64,000 nt of DNA. Source: Waddlia chondrophila WSU 86-1044. GTDB taxonomy: Bacteria > Chlamydiota > Chlamydiia > Chlamydiales > CAMCWV01. The notes beneath the pieces are model-generated. The model was not told the DNA's origin and searched no databases. It was given only the letters and a program-made list of their open reading frames with translations. The translations under genes and the position numbers were made by a program. The stretch lies in assembly GCA_945882915.1 (NCBI GenBank), contig CAMCWV010000009.1, positions 4,735 through 68,734 of the forward strand, given 5' to 3'. Positions 18,391 through 30,487 of this stretch are shown here, one piece after another; position 1 is the first letter of the stretch; each line of letters begins with the position of its first letter.

Positions 18391-19368
18391 TTATTCCTCA
18401 AGGAGCCACTCAGCAGCCTGCCTTGCAGCATAGGTGAGGATGACATCTGCCCCCGCACGCTTGATTCCTATTAAACATTCGAGCATTGCCTTTTTCGGGT
18501 CGAGCCACTTGTTTTGGGCAGCAGCCATGATCATCGCATACTCACCGCTCACGTGGTAAGCAGCTACCGGGAGTGTTGTGTGGGCGCGCAATTTAGAAAT
18601 GATATCCAAGTAAGGAAGTGCCGGCTTTACCATCAAAAAGTCAGCACCCTCTTCTTCATCAAGAGTTGCTTCTCGGATTGCCTCGGTCGCATTTGCCGGG
18701 TTTATCTGATAGGTTTTTTTGTCTCCAAAAGCAAGCTTAACATTAAGCGCATCTCTAAAAGGTCCATAAAACGACGAAGCATACTTCGCTGTGTAGGCCA
18801 TGATACTGACGTGTTCACAATTAAATTTATCAAGCGATTGACGAATGTGCCTGATGCGACCATCCATCATGTCACTTGGCGCTACAATGTCTACACCTGC
18901 TCCTGCTTGAACAATCGCCATCTTTCCGAGAACTTCTACCGTCTCATCGTTAAGAATCTCACCTTTGTCGTTTACAAGCCCATCGTGCCCATGGCTCGTA
19001 TAAGGATCCAGCGCGATATCGGCAATCACACACATTTCCGGAAATTCTTTTTTTAAGGCGCGAATAGCGCGCTGCAACAAGCCCTCAGGATTAAGGGCTT
19101 GTGTTCCAGTAATGTCTTTTTGCTCCTGGGGGATTACGGGAAAAAGTGCCATTGCCGGAATGCCTAACTTGAGCAAGGCTTCAGCTTCTTTAAGCAGCAG
19201 GTCAATCGAAAGGCGACTTACTCCAGGCAAACTCAGAATGGGTTCTTTTTGCCCCGTTCCCTCTTTTACAAAATAAGGGGCGATAAAATCGGAAGGATGA
19301 AGGCGCGTTTCTTGCACCATTTCACGAATGGCGTGACATTTGCGGTTGCGACGAGGTCTTTTTAACAT
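18391..19368 (-). CDS. hemB: Porphobilinogen synthase
   Basis: ALDPYTSHGHDG, SDMMDGR, FYGPFRDA and MVKPALPYLD motifs; ATG 19368 follows a GGGGG RBS. Confidence 0.96.
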   Translation of the reverse strand: MLKRPRRNRKCHAIREMVQETRLHPSDFIAPYFVKEGTGQKEPILSLPGVSRLSIDLLLKEAEALLKLGIPAMALFPVIPQEQKDITGTQALNPEGLLQRAIRALKKEFPEMCVIADIALDPYTSHGHDGLVNDKGEILNDETVEVLGKMAIVQAGAGVDIVAPSDMMDGRIRHIRQSLDKFNCEHVSIMAYTAKYASSFYGPFRDALNVKLAFGDKKTYQINPANATEAIREATLDEEEGADFLMVKPALPYLDIISKLRAHTTLPVAAYHVSGEYAMIMAAAQNKWLDPKKAMLECLIGIKRAGADVILTYAARQAAEWLLEE

Positions 19369-19781
19369 GTGATAGCCCCCAGATTTAGGCATAAAAATAG
19401 GAAAGGGATCATAGGAATCATTGACATAATCCACAACGTCTTAGGAAGAGGATAAAGAGAAGTTATTAAATACTCTTCTTCTTCAGAGGGTGTGGGAATG
19501 TTCATGGTTATCAACGACGCCCCTTCTGGAAAAAATGTTAATATATTGTTAGTGAACAGATCGTAAAGTGCCGCTTATGAACTTTTTCCTTGCGATGAAC
19601 AAAAGCGTGTTCATAGATCTTCTGGTTTTGGGGCGGGTTGTGAACATCTTTTCCACAAGTTTGGCTTGGTCAACTCTTCAACAGGTTTTTTGTTTTTCGC
19701 TTGATCGGCGGGGGAGGATATGGCAACCTCAATGTCTTCGCATTTTTCGGCAGAGGTTTTTCAACGCCCCGGAGTATTAAT
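19369..19781. other. Probable chromosomal replication origin (oriC)
   Basis: DnaA-box matches TTTTCCACA 19649-19657, TAATCCACA 19427-19435, TTTTCCAGA (minus) 19525-19533 and TTATCAACG 19508-19516; AT-rich tract near 19530-19550; hemB/thyX context. Confidence 0.7.
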
Positions 19782-21413
19782 ATGCAATCGTACGAAGAGT
19801 TCAGCGAGACACAGGCCAAAATTCTTGAGCGTTATGTCTCTAACACGGCTGGGGATGCTAACGTTTTTGTATTACATAACCTCCCAGAGGTAATCAAGGG
19901 GGCTCTTTTCTCCCGCTATTCCCGCTCTAGCCTTGGTCTTCGCACCCTCCTTTTAAAGGAGTTTATTTTAAATGAAGAGACCGCCTTTGACTCTATTGTA
20001 GCCCAGCAGACCCACTCTTCAGAGAGTCAGATGGTCGCAATTAAAAAGGCCCAAAATTTTTATGACCGTATTCTTGATGGATATGGAGATGATTCGATCG
20101 GAGAGCTTGGTGGCGCCCATTTAGCCATCGAAAACGTTTCGATGATTGCTGCCAAAGCTATCGAAGATCAACGCATTGGGGGCTCCCCTCTAGAAAAGTC
20201 TACGCGCTATATTTATTTCGATCAGAAGGTGAAAGGAGAGTACCTTTTTTGCAGAGAGCCCGTGCTTTGCACGTCGGGCTACAAAGAAATCTATGTTAAC
20301 ACCTGTAACATGCTTTTTGAGACATATAGCCGCCTTATTCCCCCGATGACAGCTTTAATGGAAGAGCGCAGCCCAATTAAGTCTTTCCCCGACGGCACTA
20401 CGAAGCAGGCTTATGGGGCATCCTTAAGGGCTAAAGTTCTTGATTGCCTCCGCGGCCTTTTGCCTGCAAGTACTCTTACGAATATGGGCGTCTATGGAAA
20501 TGGGCGCTTCTTTGAGCATCTTGTTCAGAAGCTCCACAGCAGCGGCCTTAAGGAACTTGAGGACATTGGAAAGTATTCTTACGACGAACTCGTCAAAACG
20601 GTGCCTTCTTTTATTCGTAGAGCCGAAGTAAATCACAAGCACTATAAAACATTTGCTTGCTTCCGAGAGGCAATTCAAGGGCAGATTAGCCATGTTGCCA
20701 AAAAGCACCGCGCAAATGTGGAAAGGTCCCAGAAGCCTGGAGTTCGCTTGATTCAGTCGGGCTCAGATATTGTTACAAAAGTCGCTGGCGCTTTGCTGTT
20801 TGGCACTTCTAATGCAGGACTCTATGAGTGGCAAGAGTATTGCCGGGGTCTTTCTGAAGAGGATATTGCAAGTATTTTCGATGCGGCGAGCAATGCAAGA
20901 GAAAATCGACGCCACAAGTCTCCACGCGGCCTTGAGCATGCAGAATTTACTTTCGAAATCATTGCCGACTTTGGGATTTACCGCGATTTGCACCGTCACA
21001 GACTGCTCACACAAGAGCGCCAGCTCCTTTCGTGTGATTATGGATATGCTGTCCCTACAGAGATTCTAGGTACTCCTATGGAAAAAGAATATCGCGATGC
21101 TATGGAGGAGGCAGCAGAGGCTTACAAGACTATTGCTGAAGAACTCCCTGAAGAGGCTCAGTATGTTGTTCCGATGGCGTACAACATCCGTTGGTACATG
21201 CACGCTAACTTACGCGCTTTACAGTGGATTTGCGAGCTACGCTCCTCGCCAGCAGGCCATCCCCACTACCGCTATGTGGCTCAAGAAATTGCGCGGCAGA
21301 TCACTCAGAAGTACCCTGCATTTGGTTGTTTCTTCAAGTTTGTAGACCGCGAAGGGTATGAGCTAGGTCGCCTTGGACAAGAGCAGCGCACCACCGACAA
21401 ACAACGTAAGTAA
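19782..21413 (+). CDS. thyX: FAD-dependent thymidylate synthase, chlamydial double-domain type
   Basis: LEKSTRY and RDLHRHR..QERQ motifs; RGLLP; GGAG RBS before ATG 19782. Confidence 0.9.
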   Translation: MQSYEEFSETQAKILERYVSNTAGDANVFVLHNLPEVIKGALFSRYSRSSLGLRTLLLKEFILNEETAFDSIVAQQTHSSESQMVAIKKAQNFYDRILDGYGDDSIGELGGAHLAIENVSMIAAKAIEDQRIGGSPLEKSTRYIYFDQKVKGEYLFCREPVLCTSGYKEIYVNTCNMLFETYSRLIPPMTALMEERSPIKSFPDGTTKQAYGASLRAKVLDCLRGLLPASTLTNMGVYGNGRFFEHLVQKLHSSGLKELEDIGKYSYDELVKTVPSFIRRAEVNHKHYKTFACFREAIQGQISHVAKKHRANVERSQKPGVRLIQSGSDIVTKVAGALLFGTSNAGLYEWQEYCRGLSEEDIASIFDAASNARENRRHKSPRGLEHAEFTFEIIADFGIYRDLHRHRLLTQERQLLSCDYGYAVPTEILGTPMEKEYRDAMEEAAEAYKTIAEELPEEAQYVVPMAYNIRWYMHANLRALQWICELRSSPAGHPHYRYVAQEIARQITQKYPAFGCFFKFVDREGYELGRLGQEQRTTDKQRK

Positions 21414-21422
21414 CAAAGAATG

Positions 21423-21522
21423 CAGAACGGGATAACTGGATATTTAAGATGAAATTAAGGAGCAACGCTTACGCTCGCTCCTTAATTTTATCTTAAATAC
21501 CCAACCTTCCTATCCTGTTCTG
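21423..21522. repeat. 100-bp imperfect palindrome after thyX (possible terminator or MITE)
   Basis: TATTTAAGATGAAATTAAGGAGC / GCTCCTTAATTTTATCTTAAATA arms; outer CAGAACGGGATA / TATCCTGTTCTG. Confidence 0.8.
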
Positions 21523-21534
21523 AATAGTTTGTGC

Positions 21535-21564
21535 TTGGCAAGAAACGGGCGATTCGGCGATAAT
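21535..21564 (+). promoter_or_regulatory. Candidate sigma-66/70 promoter of the tyrP operon leader
   Basis: TTGGCA-18 nt-GATAAT, ending 7 nt before ATG 21572. Confidence 0.45.
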
Positions 21565-21571
21565 TACAGGC

Positions 21572-21643
21572 ATGTCAAAGAACTCCTTTTTCGTTACATC
21601 TTTTTTTTCCTTCTTTTGGTGGCTAACCCCTAGCCACTCATAA
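21572..21643 (+). CDS. Putative Phe/Trp-rich attenuator leader peptide MSKNSFFVTSFFSFFWWLTPSHS
   Basis: 23 codons with 6 Phe and tandem Trp-Trp; hairpin GTGGCTA-ACCCC-TAGCCAC overlaps the Trp codons; lies upstream of aromatic amino acid permeases and trpS. Confidence 0.72.
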   Translation: MSKNSFFVTSFFSFFWWLTPSHS

Positions 21644-21751
21644 TACTTCCAACTCACGTTTTTTTGTTTTTTAGCCTCTAATTTTCCACAGGAATTCAAG
21701 TAATTCTTTGGAAGTGGCGGCGAACATTTTTTTATATTTTCAGGGGGAGCC

Positions 21752-23059
21752 ATGTCTCGGTCTCTTGCCCGTAAGGCTCACAAAGGAAGTCTTACAGGAG
21801 CCATCTTACTTATCGCCGGTAGCTGTATTGGCGCGGGAATGCTTGCGCTACCCATTGTCACGGGTATCGCTGGTTTCTATCCATCTGCACTGATGTTTGT
21901 TCTCTGCTGGCTCTTCATGACCTCCACAGGTCTACTCCTGCTCGAAGTTAATCTATGGTATGGAATAAGCATTAATATTGTTTCCCTTTCTCAGCGGACA
22001 CTCGGCTCGATTGGTAAAGTGCTGAGCTGGGGACTCTTTTTGTTTCTTTTCTACAGTATTAACGTCGCTTACGTTTCTGCAACAAGCGCCCTTTTTGCCG
22101 ATTTTTTCCGTGGGACATTCGGAATAGAGCTGCCACGTACAATGGGAAGCACCCTTTGCATCTTAATCTTTGGGGGGATTGTCTATTTAGGCACCCACGC
22201 CGTTGATAAATGCAATCGGCTCCTTATGGCCGGACTTATTGCAGCTTACGCGCTGTTGATCTCGCTTGGGAGCTCTCACGTCCAAAGCTCCTATTTGGTT
22301 TATACTGACTGGAAATATTCTCTCCTCGGAATTCCTGTAATGATCATCAGCTTTGGTTTTCATAACATGATTCCGAGCATTACCTCCTATTTGAATGGAG
22401 ATGCTAAGCGGCTGCGCATTGCATTTATCGCCGGCAGCGCCATTCCTTTGGTGGTTTATGTCCTCTGGCAGTTCGTGATCCTCGGGATCGTCCCTGTTCA
22501 GGGGGGCAATGGCTTTATTCAAGCTCTTCATGACGATTCATTTGCAACAGAGACGCTGCAAATGGTTGTTGGAAGCGCGTGGGTGGGAAATGTCGCGCAG
22601 TATTTCGCATTCTTTGCTATTACCACATCATTTTTGGGGCAGTCATTGAGTCTTGTCGACTTTATTGCCGATGGTTTGAAAGGGAAGCTGAAAAAAGAGA
22701 GTCCTTTAGGGCGTTTGGCCCTTTGTGGCTTTGCTCTTTTGCCCTCTTTGGCAATCACCCTCTCTTACCCCCACATCTTCTTGATTGCTTTGGGGTATGC
22801 GGGAGCCTTCGGTGCTGTTATTCTCTTTGGTTTGATGCCGGCACTTATGGTGTGGAAGGGGCGTTATAAGATGGGCTTTACCCATCAGCAGATTATGCCA
22901 GGGGGGAGGCTTACCCTTTCTCTTGTGATGTGCTTTGCAATTGTAGTTATTCTATTACAATTAGGCAAGACAACTGGAATGAGCTATTTCCAGCCACCTA
23001 CTCCAAAAGTCATTTCTAACCTCGTTTTCAATGGCGTTGAAGGGGTCGAAAAGTGGTAA
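21752..23059 (+). CDS. tyrP: Aromatic amino acid permease (TyrP/Mtr, HAAAP family), copy 1
   Basis: IAGSCIGAGMLALP, SFGFHNMIPS and TSFLG motifs. Confidence 0.88.
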   Translation: MSRSLARKAHKGSLTGAILLIAGSCIGAGMLALPIVTGIAGFYPSALMFVLCWLFMTSTGLLLLEVNLWYGISINIVSLSQRTLGSIGKVLSWGLFLFLFYSINVAYVSATSALFADFFRGTFGIELPRTMGSTLCILIFGGIVYLGTHAVDKCNRLLMAGLIAAYALLISLGSSHVQSSYLVYTDWKYSLLGIPVMIISFGFHNMIPSITSYLNGDAKRLRIAFIAGSAIPLVVYVLWQFVILGIVPVQGGNGFIQALHDDSFATETLQMVVGSAWVGNVAQYFAFFAITTSFLGQSLSLVDFIADGLKGKLKKESPLGRLALCGFALLPSLAITLSYPHIFLIALGYAGAFGAVILFGLMPALMVWKGRYKMGFTHQQIMPGGRLTLSLVMCFAIVVILLQLGKTTGMSYFQPPTPKVISNLVFNGVEGVEKW

Positions 23060-24246
23060 AGAAAAGTAAGGTTTTAGGGGGGGTCCTCCTCGTTGCGGGG
23101 ACGACCATTGGAGCTGGCATGCTCGCTATGCCAGTATCTACAGGAGGCGGAGGATTCTTGCCCTCCTGTGTGTTGCTGCTGATTGTGTGGCTATGCATGC
23201 TGTTCACGGCGTTTCTCATGCTCGAGGTCAATCTTTGGATGAGCGGAGATTCGAACATCATTACGATGGCTAAGCATACTCTTGGAAAGGTGGGCCAGGC
23301 TATCACTTGGATTGTTTACCTGTTGCTGCTCTATTCATTAACAGCTGCCTATATTGTTGGGTGCGCGCCTCTAATCCTTCATGCGACTTCGTCGTTAACA
23401 GGGCACGAAATGCCCTTCTGGGTTGGGACAATCCCCTTGCTGGTAGTCTTCGGATCGTTCGTCTATTTGGGGACAAAGGCAGTAGATTGGATCAACCGTT
23501 TGTTGATGACAGGCCTTGTCTTGAGCTATACTCTTATGCTTAGCCTGATCTTACCCCATGTCGATCCAGAACTTCTTATGTATGAGAACTGGAAAGTGGT
23601 TTGGCCCGCAACGACGGTTGTCGTAACTTCATTCGGTTATCACATCATCATTCCAAGCCTAACGACTTATTTGGAACGGGATGTGAAGAAGTTGAGAGTA
23701 ACCGTTCTTATTGGAAGCACCGTTCCCCTGGCGGTTTACTTCCTCTGGCAGGCGGCGATCCTTGGAGCGATCCCTGCCTATGGCGAAGGGGGGTTGTTGC
23801 ATATTTTGGAGCTTAATCAGCCAACAGCGCACCTGACGCATGCACTTGATAGGATATTGAATAGTCAGTGGGTGACGACAGCTTCTCGGTTCTTTGCCTT
23901 CTTTGCTGTTGTGACATCCTTTTTAGGTGTTTCCTTAAGCCTTTCAGACTTTTTAGCGGATGGCTTAAAGATTAAAAAAACTGAAAAAGGCAAGATAATT
24001 ACTTGCGCACTAACGTTTGCGCCGCCTCTTATCTTTGCTTTGGCATATCCTCAGGGGTTTATTATAGCCTTGAAGTACGCCGGCGTGCTCGTGGCGGTAC
24101 TTTTGATCCTGCTGCCGGTTGCAATGGTGTGGATCGGGCGTTACCGGAAGGGGTATGTAGGGCCTTTTCGCACTTGGGGGGGCAAGCCTGCTATGGCGCT
24201 TGCTTCGATCATAGCTCTTGTGGTGATCGCCATTGAACTCATTTAA
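23053..24246 (+). CDS. tyrP: Aromatic amino acid permease (TyrP/Mtr, HAAAP family), copy 2
   Basis: VAGTTIGAGMLAMP, SFGYHIIIPSL and TSFLGVSLSL motifs. Confidence 0.88.
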   Translation: MVKKSKVLGGVLLVAGTTIGAGMLAMPVSTGGGGFLPSCVLLLIVWLCMLFTAFLMLEVNLWMSGDSNIITMAKHTLGKVGQAITWIVYLLLLYSLTAAYIVGCAPLILHATSSLTGHEMPFWVGTIPLLVVFGSFVYLGTKAVDWINRLLMTGLVLSYTLMLSLILPHVDPELLMYENWKVVWPATTVVVTSFGYHIIIPSLTTYLERDVKKLRVTVLIGSTVPLAVYFLWQAAILGAIPAYGEGGLLHILELNQPTAHLTHALDRILNSQWVTTASRFFAFFAVVTSFLGVSLSLSDFLADGLKIKKTEKGKIITCALTFAPPLIFALAYPQGFIIALKYAGVLVAVLLILLPVAMVWIGRYRKGYVGPFRTWGGKPAMALASIIALVVIAIELI

Positions 24247-24254
24247 GAGGGGTA

Positions 24255-24352
24255 TATACTCCTCTGAGCTGAAAATGGGACTTTGGACGGCGCCAAGGCC
24301 CCGGGAGCTTTCGCGCTAGCCCAAAGTCCCATTTTCAACTAAGAGGAGTATA
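24255..24352. mobile_element. Family A MITE whose last base is the A of the trpS ATG
   Basis: Ends in AACTAAGAGGAGTATA, followed by TG. Confidence 0.92.
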
Positions 24353-25416
24353 TGACAACAAAAAAAAGAATTCTTACCGGAGATAGGCCCACAGGGTCTA
24401 TGCACATAGGCCATTACGTGGGGTCATTAAAAAACCGTGTAGCACTGCAGGATAAGTTTGAGTGCTATTTTATTATTGCCGACCTTCACACGCTCACCAC
24501 AAAGCCAGAGAAGGAGCATATCCTGGCCATACGTGAAAATGTTCACGAGATGGTTTTGGATTATTTGGGATGTGGGATAGACCCTTCAAAGACAACGATT
24601 TATCTGCAGTCGGCAGTCCCTGCCGTGTTTGAGCTGAACCTGATTTTTGAGATGATGGTCTCGCTGAACAGGCTGACAGGGCTCCCTAGCATCAAGGAGA
24701 TGGCCCGTAACGCCCATATGTCTGAAGATAGCATCCCTTTTGGGCTTATTGGATATCCTGTTTTGCAATCTGCGGATATTTTGATGCCCAGAGCGCATGC
24801 CGTGCCTGTCGGAAAAGACAATGAAGCTCACATAGAGCTTTGCAGAGATATTGCACGCAGGTTTAATCAGCACTACGGAGAGGTGTTCCCGCTTCCAGAG
24901 GCCATTTTAGGAGAGGTTCCTACACTTGTGGGGACAGATGGTAATGGGAAGATGAGCAAGTCACTTGGAAATTGCATATACCTTTCAGATGATGCAAAGA
25001 CCGTCGATAAGAAGGTGCGTGGCATGTACACAGATCCTAAAAGGATCCGCGCTGATGTGCCGGGAACTGTCGAGGGAAATCCTGTGTTTTCCTACCACGA
25101 CATCTTTAACCCTGACAAGGCAGAGGTTGAGGATCTTAAGAAACGGTACCGTGAAGGGGCTGTTGGAGATGTTGAAGTAAAAGAGAAGCTTGCAAGGTCT
25201 ATCAATGAGTTTTTAGATCCCATACGAGAAAAGCGTCAGTACTATGCTCAGGATAAAGGATTTGTCGAGCAGGTTGTCTATGAAGGGACTCTGAAGATGA
25301 GAGAGTGCGCGGAAGAGACGATGAAAGAGGTGCGTTCTGCTATGGGGCTTCTTGGGTCGTGGAACAAGATCTCCCGCATAGCCAGAGACCGCATGGAACG
25401 CATAAAAGGACAGTAA
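24352..25416 (+). CDS. trpS: Tryptophanyl-tRNA synthetase
   Basis: [21 protein letters not shown] and KMSKS motifs. Confidence 0.97.
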
Positions 25417-25420
25417 AGGC

Positions 25421-27469
25421 GTGGTGTGCATGAAGAAGTTTAGGTTGCAGACATCTTTTGAGCCATGTGGCGACCAGCCTCAAGCAATTAAAAAGCTTGT
25501 GGATGCAACAAACAGAGGCAAAAAGTCACAGGTGCTTTTGGGGATTACGGGGTCTGGAAAGACCTTTACGATGGCCAATGTGATCTCTCAGGTTCAGCGC
25601 CCGGCTCTTATCATCGCGCACAACAAAACTCTGGCCTCACAGCTCTATCACGAGTTCAAGACGTTCTTTCCAGATAATGCTGTTGAGTATTTTGTTTCTT
25701 ATTACGACTACTATCAGCCAGAAGCCTACCTTCCTCGTAGCGACACCTATATCGAAAAGGATATGTCGATCAATGAAGAGATCGACAAGATGCGCCTTAG
25801 CGCAACGCGCTCGTTAATCGAAAGGGAGGATGTGATTATTGTCGCCTCTGTTTCTTGTATTTACGGCCTGGGGATGCCTGAGTACTATGCTAAAATGAAC
25901 CTCCTTATTGAATCTGGCGAGAGCTACCGGCGAGATGAGCTCTTAGTGCATCTTCTTCAGATGCACTACACCAGAAATGATTTTGACTTCTCGCGCAAAA
26001 ACTTCCGCGTTCGTGGGGATGTTCTAGAGATCTTCCCTGCTTACGAAGATGACCTCGCTATTCGAGTAGAGTTTTTTGATGATGAGGTGGAGAGGATCAG
26101 CGAGATTGACCCGCTAACGGGAAAAGTTCTTCGTAGACTCGACAGAGTAACGATCTATCCCGGTTCCCACCACGTAACACCTGAATCTGTCCGCTTGCTG
26201 GCTATGGAGACGATTAAAGAGGAGCTCAATGCGCGCGTTAATGTCTATGAAAACGACAATAGAATTACAGAGAAAGAGCGCATTTGGCAGCGGACTATGT
26301 ACGATCTTGAGATGATTCGAGAGGTCGGATTTTGTAAAGGGATCGAGAACTATTCGCGTCACTTTGGGAGCAGATCTCCTGGCTCTGCGCCTTCGTGTCT
26401 TATCGATTACTTTCCCAAAAACTTTTTGCTCTTTGTAGATGAGTCTCACCAGACGCTCCCGCAAATTCATGCGATGTACAATGGGGACCATGCCCGCAAA
26501 CAAGCGCTTGTTGATTATGGGTTTCGTCTCCCTTCTGCCTTTGATAACCGCCCTTTGAAGTTTGATGAGGTGTTTGACCGGATAGGGCAGGTGATCTATG
26601 TCTCGGCCACACCTGGGAAGTGGGAGGTTGAAGAGGCGGGCGGTGAGGTTGTCGATCAGATTATTCGCCCTACAGGGCTTCTCGATCCTCAAATTGAAGT
26701 GCGTCCTGCCTCTGGAGAGGTGGGGCAGGTGGATGATTGCCTTGAAGAGATAAAGCTTCACACCGAAAAAGGTGGGCGCGTGCTAGTAACGACCTTAACG
26801 AAGAGGCTTGCCGAGGAGCTTAGCAAGTATCTTCAAGAGCTGAACATCAAGTCCAAATACCTTCACTCCGATGTTGATACGCTAGAACGGGTACAGATCA
26901 TTCGCGATTTAAGATCTGGCGTGTGCGATGTGCTTGTTGGAATTAACCTTTTAAGAGAAGGTTTGGATATTCCAGAGGTCTCGTTAGTGGCTATTTTGGA
27001 TGCTGATAAAGAAGGATTTTTGCGCAGTCAAACGGCATTGATTCAAACATGTGGCCGCGCATCACGTAATTCTGAAGGGCGAGTCATCATGTATGCTGAC
27101 CGCCAGACCGAATCAATTCGCGCAACACTGGAAATTACCGCTTCTCGCAGAGCAGTCCAGCAAGCCTACAATGAAAAGCACGGGATCACCCCAACGACGA
27201 CAAAGCGAGAGCTGGGGCCTGATTTAACACAAGATGTCGCGGCGCATACCCTTTCATTCAATAAGGGGTCAAAAACTAAGACGAAGAAGGCAGAGCTTCC
27301 CTCTCCAGAGAAACAGCATCACTACCTGACAGGCGCAGAAATCAATGGGAAGATCAAAGAGTGCGAAGCTGACATGAAGCTTGCCGCTAAAGAGCATCGC
27401 TTTGAAGATGCTGCCCGCCTTCGTGATGCCATGCACCACTTCCAAGAAATGGCCCTCACCCTGCTGTAG
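25421..27469 (+). CDS. uvrB: Excinuclease ABC subunit B (start GTG 25421 or ATG 25430)
   Basis: [22 protein letters not shown] and a C-terminal UVR domain. Confidence 0.97.
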
Positions 27470-27838: not shown

Positions 27839-30487
27839 TTAGTCTGCTTTGCCCATGAAGTGAGGGGTGATGAGTTTAGCGACGTGGAACATCGAGACTG
27901 GCTCGGTTGTTCCAAAGATTTTAGCAAGAGGCCCATCAGGCAAGATCATCCGCTTGTCAGTAGGTGACTGGCAATTGTTTGCTTTAATGTACACCCACAG
28001 ATTCTTCACAACATCTGGGCGGCTCATGGCCCCCACACCCACAAAGGCTGCAAGGGTCGGAGAGAGCTGAATGGGGGCTTGAGCTCTGGGCTTTTTCGGT
28101 GCGTTGCTAGCTGCTGCTTTTTTCGGTGCTTTTGCTTTGCTAGCTCCTGTCTTTGTTTTAGCTCCTGTCTTTGTTTTAGCTGCCGGTTTTTCTTGCCCCT
28201 TCTTTACTTTCTTTATGTAAGGGGCTTTGGCGTGGCTCTCGCCATATTTTGAGTGTATCTGCTCGACGCTGTTTCCAATGATATCGCAGTGGGGATAGGT
28301 CGTGCATGAATAGAAAGTGCTCTTCTTTCCGTAGCGGAAGGATGTCTTGGCGCTCAGCCTTCCATCACATCCAATAGCAACGCAGTGAGGGAGGTCCTCA
28401 AAAGGAATTATTACCTCTCCTTTTGCAGGGATCTTGACGAGCCCCTTGCAGTTAGGATAGGTCTCGCAGCCCATAAAGGCGCCGTAGGGTCCATGACGAA
28501 CGGACATCTTCTGTCCGCAAAGAGGGCAGGGCTGCTCCCAGTTAAACCCTTCGCCGTAATCTCCTTTGTCGAACGTTGCATGTTCTAATGAAGAGGAGTG
28601 ATCGCAATCAGGGTAGCGTGAGCAGGAGTAGAAGTATTTGGCGCTAGAAATCGCCCATGTCTTTTGAAGCTTGCTCCCATGTTCTGCGCCGCACTTTGGG
28701 CAATCGATATCTGTAGGGATTTTTGGGACGATCGCACTCTTTATGGCCTCTTCTACAGAAGGGGAGAATTTTGCCCAAAAGTCTATGATGACAGCCTTCC
28801 AATCCTTCTGATTTTCAGCGACCTGTTCCAGGTCATCTTCCATTTGCTTTGTGAAATCGATATTCATGACAAGCTGGAAGCTTGTCTCAAGCATTTCAGC
28901 TACAACACGGCCAAGGCCAGTGGGTTTAAGGCGGCCTTGCTCTTTTACGGTATAATCCCTGCTCTGAATTTTATTCATGATCGCTGCATACGTAGAAGGT
29001 CTGCCGATCCCGCGCTTTTCTAGCTCTTTGACAAGAGAGGCTTCAGAGTAGCGTGGAGGTGGGCGTGTGAAGGATTGCTCGTGAGTGAGCTTCTTCAAAT
29101 CCAGAGGGTTTCCTTCAGCAAGAGATGCGGGGATTTTTGATTCTTCTTCTTTTTCTTTGTCATCTTCTTGCTCTTCATAGACAGCCAGGAATCCTTTGAA
29201 CTTTATGGTCGAGCCGGTAGCGCGAAGCATGATGCTCTGGTCTGTGGCGATGTCAGCAGAGACTGTGTCGTAAACAGCTGGAGCCATTTGTGAGGCAACA
29301 AAACGCCTCCAGATTAGTCCGTAAAGCATATTTTGTTCGCGGTTTAGGAATGGTTCAACGACCTCTGGAGGGTGTTTGAGGTTTGTTGGGCGGATCGCTT
29401 CGTGGGCGTCTTGAGCATTTTTGGTTTTAAAGACGTTGGCCTCTGCTGGAAGGAATGGCGCTCCGTATTGCTTTGCAATAAGAGTGCGAGCTTCGCTAAT
29501 TGCTTCCGGCGCTGAGCGTACAGAGTCAGTACGCATATAAGTAATAAGGCCTTCTGTCCCCTCATTGCCCATGTCAATTCCCTCATAGAGGCCTTGGGCG
29601 ATTCTCATGGTGTTTGAAACCGAGAATCCACACTGACGGCTGGCTTCTTGTTGTAGCGTAGATGTAATGAAGGGGGGTTTAGAGTATCTTCTTTCTTCTT
29701 TTTTATCGACTCTACCGACTTTGTACTTGGCCTTTTTTAGCCTCGCAACAATAGACTCTGCCGTCTTTTGATCGGGGATCGTTGTGAGAGTATCTTTCCC
29801 GTCCTGGAGTTCTTTTTCGACGCGCTTGCCATCAACTGTATGGACGGTCGCTTTAAAGACCGGCTCTTTTTCTTTGCCTGTTTCTAGTAAGGCGGCGATG
29901 TTCCAGTATTCGATGGACTTGAATGCTTCGATCTCTTTTTCTCTGTCGACAACAAGTTTAAGGGCAATCGATTGCACCCGTCCTGCAGAGATAGACCCCT
30001 CTGAACTGCTTCGTCTGATTCTTCTAGCAAGGATTGGAGAGATTGTATAGCCAACAAGTCTATCGAGGAGTCTACGCGCTTGCTGCGCATTAACAAGGGC
30101 AAGGTCAATGTTACGTGGGTTGCTTAACGCTTTAACTACGGCATCTTTAGTGATCGAATGGAAACTCGCCCGCTTGATGGTCGTTTTTTCTGGGAAGATA
30201 CTTGCAAGGTGCCAAGCAATCGCCTCTCCTTCCCTATCAGGATCGGGACAGAGGTAGACGGTATCGCACTGTTTGGCTGCTTTGATAAGATTTGAGACCA
30301 CCTGCTGCTTGTCTTCAAGGATTTCGTACTGGGGCTCGAAGTTATGCTCCATATCGATCCCCATTCCTTTTTTGGGCAAGTCGCGGATATGCCCATAGGA
30401 AGACTCGAATCTATAATCGGGCCCAAGAAACTTTTGCAGCGATTTGATTTTTGCCGGAGACTCGACGATAACTAATGACTTACCCAT
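27839..30487 (-). CDS. topA: DNA topoisomerase I with zinc ribbons and a C-terminal SWIB domain
   Basis: IVESPAK, DPDREGE, GRVQS and ITYMRTDS motifs; SWIB-like LWVYIKANNCQ after a K/A-rich linker. Confidence 0.96.
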   Translation of the reverse strand: MGKSLVIVESPAKIKSLQKFLGPDYRFESSYGHIRDLPKKGMGIDMEHNFEPQYEILEDKQQVVSNLIKAAKQCDTVYLCPDPDREGEAIAWHLASIFPEKTTIKRASFHSITKDAVVKALSNPRNIDLALVNAQQARRLLDRLVGYTISPILARRIRRSSSEGSISAGRVQSIALKLVVDREKEIEAFKSIEYWNIAALLETGKEKEPVFKATVHTVDGKRVEKELQDGKDTLTTIPDQKTAESIVARLKKAKYKVGRVDKKEERRYSKPPFITSTLQQEASRQCGFSVSNTMRIAQGLYEGIDMGNEGTEGLITYMRTDSVRSAPEAISEARTLIAKQYGAPFLPAEANVFKTKNAQDAHEAIRPTNLKHPPEVVEPFLNREQNMLYGLIWRRFVASQMAPAVYDTVSADIATDQSIMLRATGSTIKFKGFLAVYEEQEDDKEKEEESKIPASLAEGNPLDLKKLTHEQSFTRPPPRYSEASLVKELEKRGIGRPSTYAAIMNKIQSRDYTVKEQGRLKPTGLGRVVAEMLETSFQLVMNIDFTKQMEDDLEQVAENQKDWKAVIIDFWAKFSPSVEEAIKSAIVPKIPTDIDCPKCGAEHGSKLQKTWAISSAKYFYSCSRYPDCDHSSSLEHATFDKGDYGEGFNWEQPCPLCGQKMSVRHGPYGAFMGCETYPNCKGLVKIPAKGEVIIPFEDLPHCVAIGCDGRLSAKTSFRYGKKSTFYSCTTYPHCDIIGNSVEQIHSKYGESHAKAPYIKKVKKGQEKPAAKTKTGAKTKTGASKAKAPKKAAASNAPKKPRAQAPIQLSPTLAAFVGVGAMSRPDVVKNLWVYIKANNCQSPTDKRMILPDGPLAKIFGTTEPVSMFHVAKLITPHFMGKAD

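Follow-up and report, generated by a model that had tools for sequence, protein, structure and literature searches.

A recurrent leader open reading frame, probably leaderless and with tryptophan codons at the foot of a hairpin, precedes tyrP permease genes in chlamydiae

The window analysed here, a stretch of 64,000 nucleotides (nt) from Waddlia chondrophila WSU 86-1044 (assembly GCA_945882915.1, contig CAMCWV010000009.1, positions 4,735 to 68,734), carries two tandem genes for aromatic amino acid permeases, tyrP1 and tyrP2, followed by trpS, which codes for tryptophan–tRNA ligase (TrpRS). Upstream of tyrP1 lies a short upstream open reading frame (uORF), hereafter the leader, in which two adjacent Trp codons stand at the foot of a GC hairpin, and 16 distinct leaders of the same design were found in different chlamydial lineages, at loci where tyrP has its own upstream spacer. 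The leader is very probably a functional cis-regulatory uORF. As judged from sequence comparison and folding, the model that we favour, taken as a whole, appears rather likely, namely that the leader belongs to a type of ribosome-mediated attenuation hitherto undescribed in Chlamydiae and controls tyrP1 through sequestration of the ribosome-binding site (RBS) of this gene. The genome carrying the window, designated G000, comprises 1.76 Mb in 38 contigs, the window being located on contig C9, and its completeness is estimated at 94%.

The leader upstream of tyrP1

The leader occupies positions 21572 to 21643 of the plus strand (ATG at 21572, TAA at 21641–21643), codes for the peptide MSKNSFFVTSFFSFFWWLTPSHS, and its stop codon is separated by 108 nt from the ATG of tyrP1 at 21752. 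Its 23 codons include six Phe codons and the tandem Trp codons W16 and W17 (TGG TGG, 21617–21622, plus strand), which are the proposed sensor codons. Among the 18,151 ATG-initiated ORFs of 8 to 60 codons in G000, 115 contain a WW pair and ten combine WW with at least four Phe, the leader being the shortest of these ten. A sigma-70-like promoter, TTGGCA-18-GATAAT (21535–21564, plus strand, 10 matches out of 12), is the sole promoter-like match between 21000 and 22200; its -10 box ends 7 nt 5' of the leader ATG, upstream of which no usable Shine–Dalgarno (SD) sequence is present. Transcription is predicted to start at the A of this ATG or 1 nt 5' of it.

The first of two hairpins on the leader RNA, hairpin 1 (21618–21638, plus strand), is formed by GGUGGCUA and UAGCCACU around the loop ACCCC, and its 5' arm begins within the Trp codons. 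It reaches -11.3 kcal/mol in a 30-nt window, a stability equalled by one of 200 dinucleotide shuffles. An earlier sequence-only reading of this DNA had described the uORF and its distance to the first permease gene, the promoter and the lack of an SD, and the core of this hairpin, in which GTGGCTA (21619–21625) pairs with TAGCCAC (21631–21637); all of these were recovered at the same places, and the stem could be extended to 8 bp. The same reading held the spacer to be G-poor and devoid of a classical GC terminator. The region from leader start to tyrP1 start (21572–21751) is indeed low in G (16%, with 41% T, for a genome GC content of 47%) and has no short GC-rich terminator, but the reading had overlooked hairpin 2, a long and imperfect structure (21665–21726) followed by U7 (21727–21733), which spans 21665–21733 of the plus strand. 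Hairpin 2 is AU-rich and was not picked up by a consensus scan; the folds suggest that it is either terminator-like or one arm of a three-way junction closed by a helix between an anti-SD and the SD. The candidate anti-SD is a pyrimidine tract, UUCCUUCU (21607–21614, plus strand), corresponding to codons F12–F15, and the SD of tyrP1 is AGGGGGAG (21742–21749, plus strand).

A scan against Rfam of positions 19000–26000, at E values up to 10, gave 13 matches, none to a leader family and all below half of the gathering score. Strain-level DNA contigs from four sequencing runs cover 20900–21688 and 21895–22600 (X5) and 21517–21667 (X8), and are patchy elsewhere; over 20900–21688, contig X5 of a variant strain shows six differences, all within thyX, and none in 21414–21688, which is weak evidence.

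Recurrence in other chlamydiae

Relatives were sampled as 40 order-level genomes, 80 metagenome loci and 80 genome loci. The synteny thyX–tyrP–tyrP is kept across the order. The leaders found include MKQAFFSFNFFRSPFFWR, MNKHFSIPFFGFFFWRLRAV, MPQYVVSSYFFFSFWCLQHR, MNLRICLFSLFSFWP and MDNKYITTSTSHFFFWWR, with further examples in MNTAINVSLPSFFRFWWLASHFTH, MQSRCPYSEPFFFRFWRF, MRSHLFFFFSYCRFFWC and MQCNPFFFFWPF. With a strict motif, defined as an ATG ORF of 10 to 45 codons containing FW and at least three Phe in the nine residues before the W, 9 out of 40 tyrP-upstream spacers were positive on the forward strand and none on the reverse strand, compared with an average of 0.11 positives, and never more than one, over 300 dinucleotide shuffles. 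When the motif was relaxed, 12 of the 40 spacers were positive in the forward and none in the reverse direction (shuffle mean 0.62, maximum 3). An independent scan of the 80 genome loci with the relaxed motif yielded nine forward and two reverse regions; the forward ones comprised four new leaders, four contigs already known and one region read as thyX coding sequence from its peptide and position, and all four new leaders carry the complete architecture. The comparison of tyrP upstream regions proposed by the sequence-only reading thus reveals a Trp-bearing uORF that recurs in association with tyrP(–tyrP)–trpS, well beyond the shuffle and reverse-strand controls.

The genes preceding a leader-bearing tyrP vary, and include thyX, dus, def, an outer membrane protein (OMP) gene and a DUF4116 gene. 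Among 110 classified loci, a leader is present in none of the 65 where thyX ends at most 80 nt from tyrP, and in 12 of the 40 uncoupled ones. Judged by these neighbourhoods, the leader is an element that travels with tyrP and not with the neighbouring gene. Upstream of thyX, no leader was seen in 35 thyX-coupled loci, save for one doubtful case in L051. In a FastTree phylogeny of 94 TyrP sequences (of the 110, 16 with stop codons or short matches had been excluded, L042 and L036 among them), the ten leader-bearing rows all fall outside a well-supported 55-row clade of thyX-coupled genes. Near relatives of leader-bearing loci often have no leader; either the leader is evolutionarily labile or the search rule overlooks variants.

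With regard to other tyrP paralogues, a survey of 80 further upstream regions returned nothing convincing in most cases and a few candidates, which were not counted. L112 (ending in SSWR-stop), L121 (SSWRWR-stop) and L187 (LLLWWA-stop), tyrP paralogues of the relatives G030, G015 and G016, respectively, show small hairpins at the Trp codon. The leader device may therefore extend, with fewer Phe codons, to other tyrP paralogue groups. In L060, a second uORF, MTIILEISINIIFIILFVRTWR (1699–1767), is found about 100 nt upstream of the main leader, ends in W-R-stop and has a hairpin at TGG, which suggests tandem leaders. G000 itself harbours a third tyrP paralogue on contig C6, preceded by a uORF of the leaderless type, MNSPKSFFHPPSVARYCRYP (about 76330–76470, minus strand), with TTGCGG-18-TAAACT ending 7 nt 5' of its ATG. 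Its hairpin is small, with the UAG stop codon in the loop and a Tyr codon in the 5' arm, and the tract U6-G-A-U7 that follows resembles 21658–21670. This uORF may be a Tyr-flavoured version of the same device.

Across G000, the strict motif occurs in 17 ORFs in total, 13 of them inside ORFs of at least 150 residues. A match on contig C3, which overlaps and precedes the start of a reverse-transcriptase-like gene, was rejected as a chance occurrence, as were those on C1 and C7, which are not upstream of a same-strand gene. The C3 gene (15301–16659, minus strand) is a 450-residue ORF with a YGDD motif, typical of reverse transcriptases.

Shared architecture of the leaders

The 16 leaders have U/C-rich bodies. 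An in-frame Trp codon is present in all of them, Trp having belonged to the selection rule, and lies at codon 14 to 17 in 12. The Trp codon at the hairpin foot is their most constant feature. The 5' arm of the GC hairpin starts in this UGG. Among the first 12 leaders, no other 30-nt window is more stable than that of the hairpin in ten cases, and at most 10 of 200 shuffles equal its stability, again in ten. MAFFT alignments of the leaders failed to bring hairpins of differing register into columns, and energies per sequence were used instead, together with shuffles. The stems are GGUGGCU/AGCCAC, UGGCG/CGCCA, GGCGC/GCGCC, GGUGC/GCACC or GGCC/GGCC according to the lineage, and since they differ, it is the pairing and not the sequence that is kept. 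The stop codon is located inside the hairpin loop in 10 out of 16 leaders, and a few codons later in the others, G000 included. A G-poor, pyrimidine-rich spacer of 36 to 118 nt then leads to the RBS of tyrP, a second tyrP usually follows, and trpS comes directly after the permease gene or genes in all four leader loci that reach far enough (L042, L072, L060 and L035).

That the hairpin is linked to a reading frame was seen without reference to any ORF, by collecting all TGG triplets in which the GG forms the start of a hairpin with an energy of at most -7 kcal/mol. Of 25 such forward sites (WW pairs being counted twice and three sites lying in thyX coding sequence), 19 have an open in-frame ATG 8 to 25 codons upstream, versus 3 and 10 in the two shifted frames; 17 sites on the reverse strand gave 0, 1 and 0.

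A -10-like hexamer is found 6 to 8 nt 5' of the ATG in 11 of the 16 leaders. Among the first 12, a -10/-35 pair ends 6 to 7 nt before the ATG in seven, while none of the remaining offsets between 0 and 30 is seen in more than one leader. This distance between the -10 box and the ATG argues for leaderless transcripts. The sequence-only reading had called the uORF leaderless; the promoter geometry in relatives makes this probable, the transcript start being a predicted one. As to precedents within the phylum, the portions available of two mapping studies report three leaderless mRNAs in C. trachomatis (PMC2817459) and five in C. pneumoniae (PMC3333780), and in the latter species a tyrP1 leader of more than 400 nt (PMC3333780).

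The amino acid sensed

Several features designate Trp, namely its constant codon and the presence of trpS in the operon, and we think it likely from these sequences that the leader is Trp-responsive. In G000, estimated to be 94% complete as mentioned above, neither trpB nor prephenate dehydratase was detected, so that import is probably its sole source of Trp and Phe.

The case of Phe is different. The leaders contain 50 Phe codons in the true frame, and their tracts read in either of the alternative frames give 32 and 35, and because of these counts, and since the set was chosen for Phe, the enrichment mostly reflects U-richness. In-phase TTC runs are present in L042 and L007. Moreover, the Phe codons sit on the proposed functional RNA tract; stalling there would therefore have the same effect, which makes Phe sensing plausible, although the comparison does not require dual sensing. 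Of the dual Phe/Trp sensing put forward by the sequence-only reading, the Trp part is thus well supported, while the Phe part is plausible.

Proposed mechanism and its alternatives

From the architecture and its recurrence we infer the following sequence of events for G000. Transcription would start with the A of the ATG at 21572 or one nucleotide earlier, and the 23-codon leader would be translated without a 5' untranslated region. Its U/C-rich body ends in two Trp codons that are also the first bases of the GC hairpin. When charged tRNA-Trp is plentiful, ribosomes would pass through and leave, and the tract at 21607–21614 would pair with the RBS of tyrP1 at 21742–21749; hairpins 1 and 2 would then be arms of a junction closed by this helix, and the expression of tyrP1–tyrP2–trpS(–uvrB) would be kept low. 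When charged tRNA-Trp (probably also tRNA-Phe) is short, a ribosome would park on the tract, the RBS would be freed, and the permeases and TrpRS would be made. In addition, untranslated tyrP may be subject to Rho.

The minimum-free-energy fold of G000 contains this very helix (21607–21614 with 21742–21749), closing a junction of which hairpins 1 and 2 are the arms; for tract and RBS a duplex energy of -8.4 kcal/mol was computed. In the free RNA, the probability that the SD is paired with the uORF region 5' of the Trp codon is at least 0.79 in 5 out of 12 leaders, and amounts to 0.82 in G000. Furthermore, tracts pair better with their own SD region than with those of other leaders (mean energy of -6.74 versus -5.42, with 61 of 20,000 permutations as low), and lineage-specific complements are observed, such as GCUCUCCUU with AAGGAGAGC in L003, ACCGUUUU with AAAACGGU in L072, and also AUUUCUUCUUC with GGAGAAGAAAU. 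On these models, an output mainly through RBS sequestration is quite possible, with somewhat less than even prospects. Of the outputs considered it is the one with the best support, and it agrees better with the comparison of leaders than the output suggested in the sequence-only reading.

Several observations weigh against this reading. No close relative of G000 was found among the order-level genomes and the metagenome and genome loci sampled, the best TyrP identity being 54–57%, and for this reason the fine-scale conservation of its leader is unreadable. The search motif was framed after the first six leaders were known, and at least three of the 40 spacers scanned are thyX coding sequence on truncated contigs. 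Such a leader is absent from 28 of the 40 uncoupled loci, and in the TyrP tree the leader rows are scattered among the 39 rows outside the thyX-coupled clade, requiring ten changes. The Phe enrichment is mainly compositional, as seen above, and the whole G000 leader folds no better than its shuffled versions (z = -1.28). In six leaders the own SD ranks 12th or worse of 16, that is, they have no specific complement, and any purine-rich SD will pair with a pyrimidine tract. In the model, a single ribosome masked at W frees the SD only modestly in G000 (from 0.06 to 0.25) and brings no change in L003. Lastly, RBS sequestration gives hairpin 1 and the stop codon in its loop no necessary role.

The strongest of the alternatives, a serious rival though unlikely on balance, generalises the proposal of the sequence-only reading: stalling of a ribosome at the Trp or Phe codons would keep transcription from ending prematurely before tyrP. 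In an intrinsic form, the terminator would be hairpin 1 with a U run in some lineages, or hairpin 2 with U7 (21665–21733) in G000; in a Rho-dependent form, Rho would load on the G-poor, C/U-rich RNA beside the uORF stop codon, as in tnaC or speFL. In L003 the Trp hairpin forms a canonical terminator (CUUUUGGCG-UUAGC-CGCCAAAAG followed by U7), and a clear terminator or a U-rich tail after the hairpin was seen by eye in only about five to six of the 16 leaders (L003, L036, L042, L060, L212 and partly L195). In most leaders the hairpin is not immediately followed by a U run, and wherever it served as terminator, it would be blocked just as well by a ribosome standing at the stop codon in the loop as by a stalled one. 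The Trp codon stands one to seven codons ahead of the stop, in agreement with a scheme in which a parked ribosome has to mask the RNA beside the stop codon. In G000 and, as judged by eye, in a similar form in L059, there is a second long hairpin with a U run after it, while leaders with short spacers have none. The mutually exclusive antiterminator that such a scheme calls for was looked for by folding 21572–21737 while keeping 29 nt, the footprint of a ribosome placed on W16, W17, F11/12, F6 or the stop codon, out of any pairing, and none was found. The minimum-free-energy structure retains hairpin 2 with the ribosome on any of the Trp or Phe positions, and masking at the stop codon perturbs only its base. 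The alternative pairings pointed out in the sequence-only reading do exist as complementarities (AGTGGC at 21713–21718, TTAGCC at 21671–21676, ACTTCCAA at 21645–21652 and TTGGAAGT at 21708–21715), but they are not competitive in these constrained folds and were rejected as the dominant structure. As regards the Rho-dependent form, which the sequence-only reading had suggested, rho is present in G000 and all spacers are G-poor and pyrimidine-rich; yet the spacers are U-rich rather than C-rich and measure only 36 to 118 nt, and Rho dependence is not a property readable from sequence. Termination would be intrinsic in leaders of the L003 type and possibly Rho-dependent in others, and it may also act together with RBS sequestration.

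An element independent of translation, the ORF being incidental, is improbable, whether as a U-tract and hairpin forming an RNA polymerase pause or nucleotide-sensing site, a protein or small RNA site, or an mRNA-stabilising 5' structure. The string YUUUUGG and the hairpin are better conserved than the peptide, and the Phe codons follow from U-richness, but TGG has the frame bias given above (19 versus 3 and 10), an ATG is constantly found 13 to 16 codons upstream and 6 to 8 nt past a -10 box, and neither the reverse strand nor the shuffles contain the open frames. Moreover, the stems differ between lineages, so that no fixed protein operator is conserved.

Still less probable is a nascent-peptide sensor similar to TnaC, in which a C-terminal F-W-(R/P/W/C)-stop would arrest the ribosome at the stop codon when Trp is abundant and thereby induce the operon, instead of starvation relieving its repression. 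The tna operon combines a Trp-containing leader with Rho, TnaB belongs to the same permease family, and 8 out of 16 leaders end in W followed by R, P, C or A and the stop. Against this, only F-W is shared, with no other fixed residue, unrelated N-terminal halves and a distance from W to stop of one to nine codons; the hairpin stems account for the R and P codons (CGN/GCG and CCN/GGN); and in an apparent auxotroph one would hardly expect an importer and TrpRS to be induced when Trp is abundant. Finally, a functionless chance ORF in a T-rich spacer is scarcely credible, for although the leader is T-rich (41%) and its overall fold unremarkable (z of only -1.28), 16 lineages share the same composite architecture, far more than the shuffled and reverse-strand sequences would yield, and the related leaders, which differ in stems and peptides, are not misassembled copies of one sequence.

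Genomic context

The local gene order in the window is thyX (19701–21413), a 338-nt spacer, tyrP1, tyrP2, trpS and uvrB. The first permease, TyrP1 (21752–23059, plus strand), has 435 residues and matches PF03222 (E 2.9e-97) and, with 305.9 bits, TIGR00837, under the 350-bit cut-off of the latter. Its tandem paralogue TyrP2 (23053–24246, plus strand) has 397 residues, matches PF03222 (E 1.6e-112) and passes the TIGR00837 cut-off with 360.1 bits. The two genes overlap by 7 nt and both code for permeases of the Trp_Tyr_perm family. The product of trpS (24352–25416, plus strand) reaches 315.7 bits with TIGR00233, for a cut-off of 176.75; the assignment of two aromatic permeases followed by trpS in the sequence-only reading is thus borne out by PF03222 and TIGR00233. 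The uvrB gene (25421–27469, plus strand), which starts 4 nt past trpS and shows the same synteny in L042, is probably the final gene of the tyrP1–tyrP2–trpS unit. Further along, a TopA–SWIB fusion (27839–30487, minus strand) represents a chlamydial hallmark of G000. No tRNA was found in 21000–22000, and an 86-residue antisense ORF at 21493–21753 has no Pfam family above threshold.

The spacer between tyrP2 and trpS is filled by a perfect inverted repeat of 16 bp (24271–24286 and 24321–24336) with a 34-nt GC-rich loop and no U run after it. This repeat may serve in processing or stabilisation, or act as a partial terminator, and trpS may be less than fully co-regulated in G000. In its vicinity, the string TAAGAGG(A/G)GTATAT is present at 24245–24262 and 24339–24356, and also on contigs C1, C3 and C7, at several gene starts or ends; it may correspond to a preferred strong ribosome-binding context or to a short repeat.

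Downstream of thyX, an inverted repeat with arms of about 24 nt (21440–21499, without assigned strand) has a 12-bp core stem at 21452–21463 and 21477–21488, followed by a T run. Rfam gave for this repeat only spurious hairpin-type matches, all far below the gathering scores. In sequence it looks like a bidirectional terminator, and it is a probable terminator by which thyX and the tyrP unit are kept separate. This palindrome and the 338-nt spacer set tyrP apart from thyX here, while most relatives couple both genes: thyX ends at most 80 nt from tyrP in 65 of 110 loci, many of them with an overlap of a few nucleotides. Such adjacency suggests translational coupling of thymidylate synthesis to aromatic amino acid import. 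ThyX itself is 435 to 574 residues long here and across the order, with a Thy1 domain confined to the C-terminal part and a long N-terminal part without Pfam match. In addition, a conserved ORF of 41 to 45 residues (MNKSS..FKMSEWLRDVGAK...) is found upstream of thyX in the metagenome loci L080, L091 and L101, and is probably an unannotated small protein gene.

Significance

Trp starvation is the central stress that hosts impose on chlamydiae, and the way in which these bacteria perceive a lack of amino acids without the usual global regulators is still debated. Environmental chlamydiae are not known to have a classical stringent response. We put forward, tentatively and as an idea with modest chances, that a family of leaderless sensory uORFs provides these bacteria with a direct read-out of tRNA charging, in which the sensor codon opens a hairpin with the stop codon in its loop, the stall site doubles as anti-SD and each paralogue has its own codon flavour, with Trp and Phe before tyrP1–tyrP2–trpS and, for the third paralogue on contig C6, Tyr codons at the foot of the hairpin. 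If true, these obligate intracellular bacteria would possess a 'ribulon' for nutrient import that is specific to the amino acid, with an architecture that is new. The leader would represent a simple and directly testable sensor placed before the very genes responsible for aromatic amino acid import and tRNA-Trp charging; many uncultured lineages possess such a leader, which would be portable to reporter systems. It would also extend leaderless sensory uORFs from actinobacteria to a distant phylum, and illustrates that unannotated ORFs of 12 to 28 codons in metagenome-assembled genomes can be recognised through comparative architecture alone.

Comparison with known leader systems

The trp and pheA operons of enterobacteria are the classical examples of transcription attenuation by a leader peptide, and Rfam holds families for both Trp and Phe leaders. 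The chlamydial leaders resemble them in being short ORFs with the cognate codons near the end and a stop within a few codons and, as in segment 1 of the trp leader, the Trp codons are part of the 5' arm of a hairpin. They differ from them by the lack of an SD before the leader, of an antiterminator/terminator pair among the structures found, of a terminator in most lineages, and of an Rfam match. In another classical system, free Trp is recognised by TnaC by means of a fixed motif in the peptide, and the response is an induction of catabolism. The E. coli tnaC–tnaA–tnaB arrangement shares with the one described here a Trp-containing leader upstream of a permease of the HAAAP/Trp_Tyr_perm family, and a G-poor RNA beside the stop codon, where Rho could potentially load. 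Unlike that of TnaC, the chlamydial peptide is variable, and the logic expected of an auxotroph is de-repression in starvation.

Within the phylum, the accessible portions of two reports on Chlamydiaceae describe predicted trpL leaders between trpR and trpB (PMC3937554) and a Trp-codon-dependent attenuation of YtgR (PMC7755916), controls that share with the tyrP leaders the phylum and the nutrient. The C. felis trpL candidate is similar in that a Phe-rich stretch followed by WW (FPFFFSLWW) stands at its end (PMC3937554). As far as this source goes, the trpL leaders differ from the tyrP leader by their location in the trp salvage operon of the pathogens, their length of 40 to 59 residues and the fact that they are not leaderless; in the same portion of the source, tandem tyrP genes near uvrB are described without a tyrP leader (PMC3937554). 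Outside the phylum, the motif uORFC-13-1 upstream of aroF in Acholeplasma, as presented in the part available of PMC8632094, is also a candidate uORF with a U run encoding Phe, adjoining a terminator stem and controlling an aromatic amino acid gene. It belongs to another phylum and has another target, and the features given there comprise an RBS but neither a Trp codon nor a hairpin at the sensor codon (PMC8632094). No report of a tyrP leader peptide in Chlamydiae was found in the literature searched, subscription journals and supplementary tables, for instance those of genome-wide attenuator predictions, being outside its scope.

A close parallel to the proposed mechanism is offered by the leaderless poly-Cys small ORFs of mycobacteria, the 'Cys ribulon' of Canestrari et al., where, according to the portion available of their preprint (bioRxiv 10.1101/834739), stalled ribosomes block a duplex that sequesters the next RBS. 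In both cases a short ORF, leaderless by prediction in chlamydiae, is the first cistron and is enriched in the codon of the amino acid supplied, and a stalled ribosome is proposed to block an RNA duplex hiding the next RBS; several loci per genome may carry their own leader, as the third tyrP paralogue of G000 has a similar one. As far as the comparison with that portion goes, the chlamydial leaders belong to another phylum, have one or two sensor codons, for Trp and perhaps Phe instead of Cys, and possess a conserved hairpin that begins at the sensor codon, often with the stop codon in its loop; their targets are importers and an aminoacyl-tRNA synthetase, and not biosynthetic genes. Within leader-peptide attenuation, the tyrP leaders would thus represent a new combination, as read from sequence, of predicted leaderless initiation, a sensor codon opening a hairpin that often encloses the stop codon, an output without antiterminator, and importers together with TrpRS as targets.

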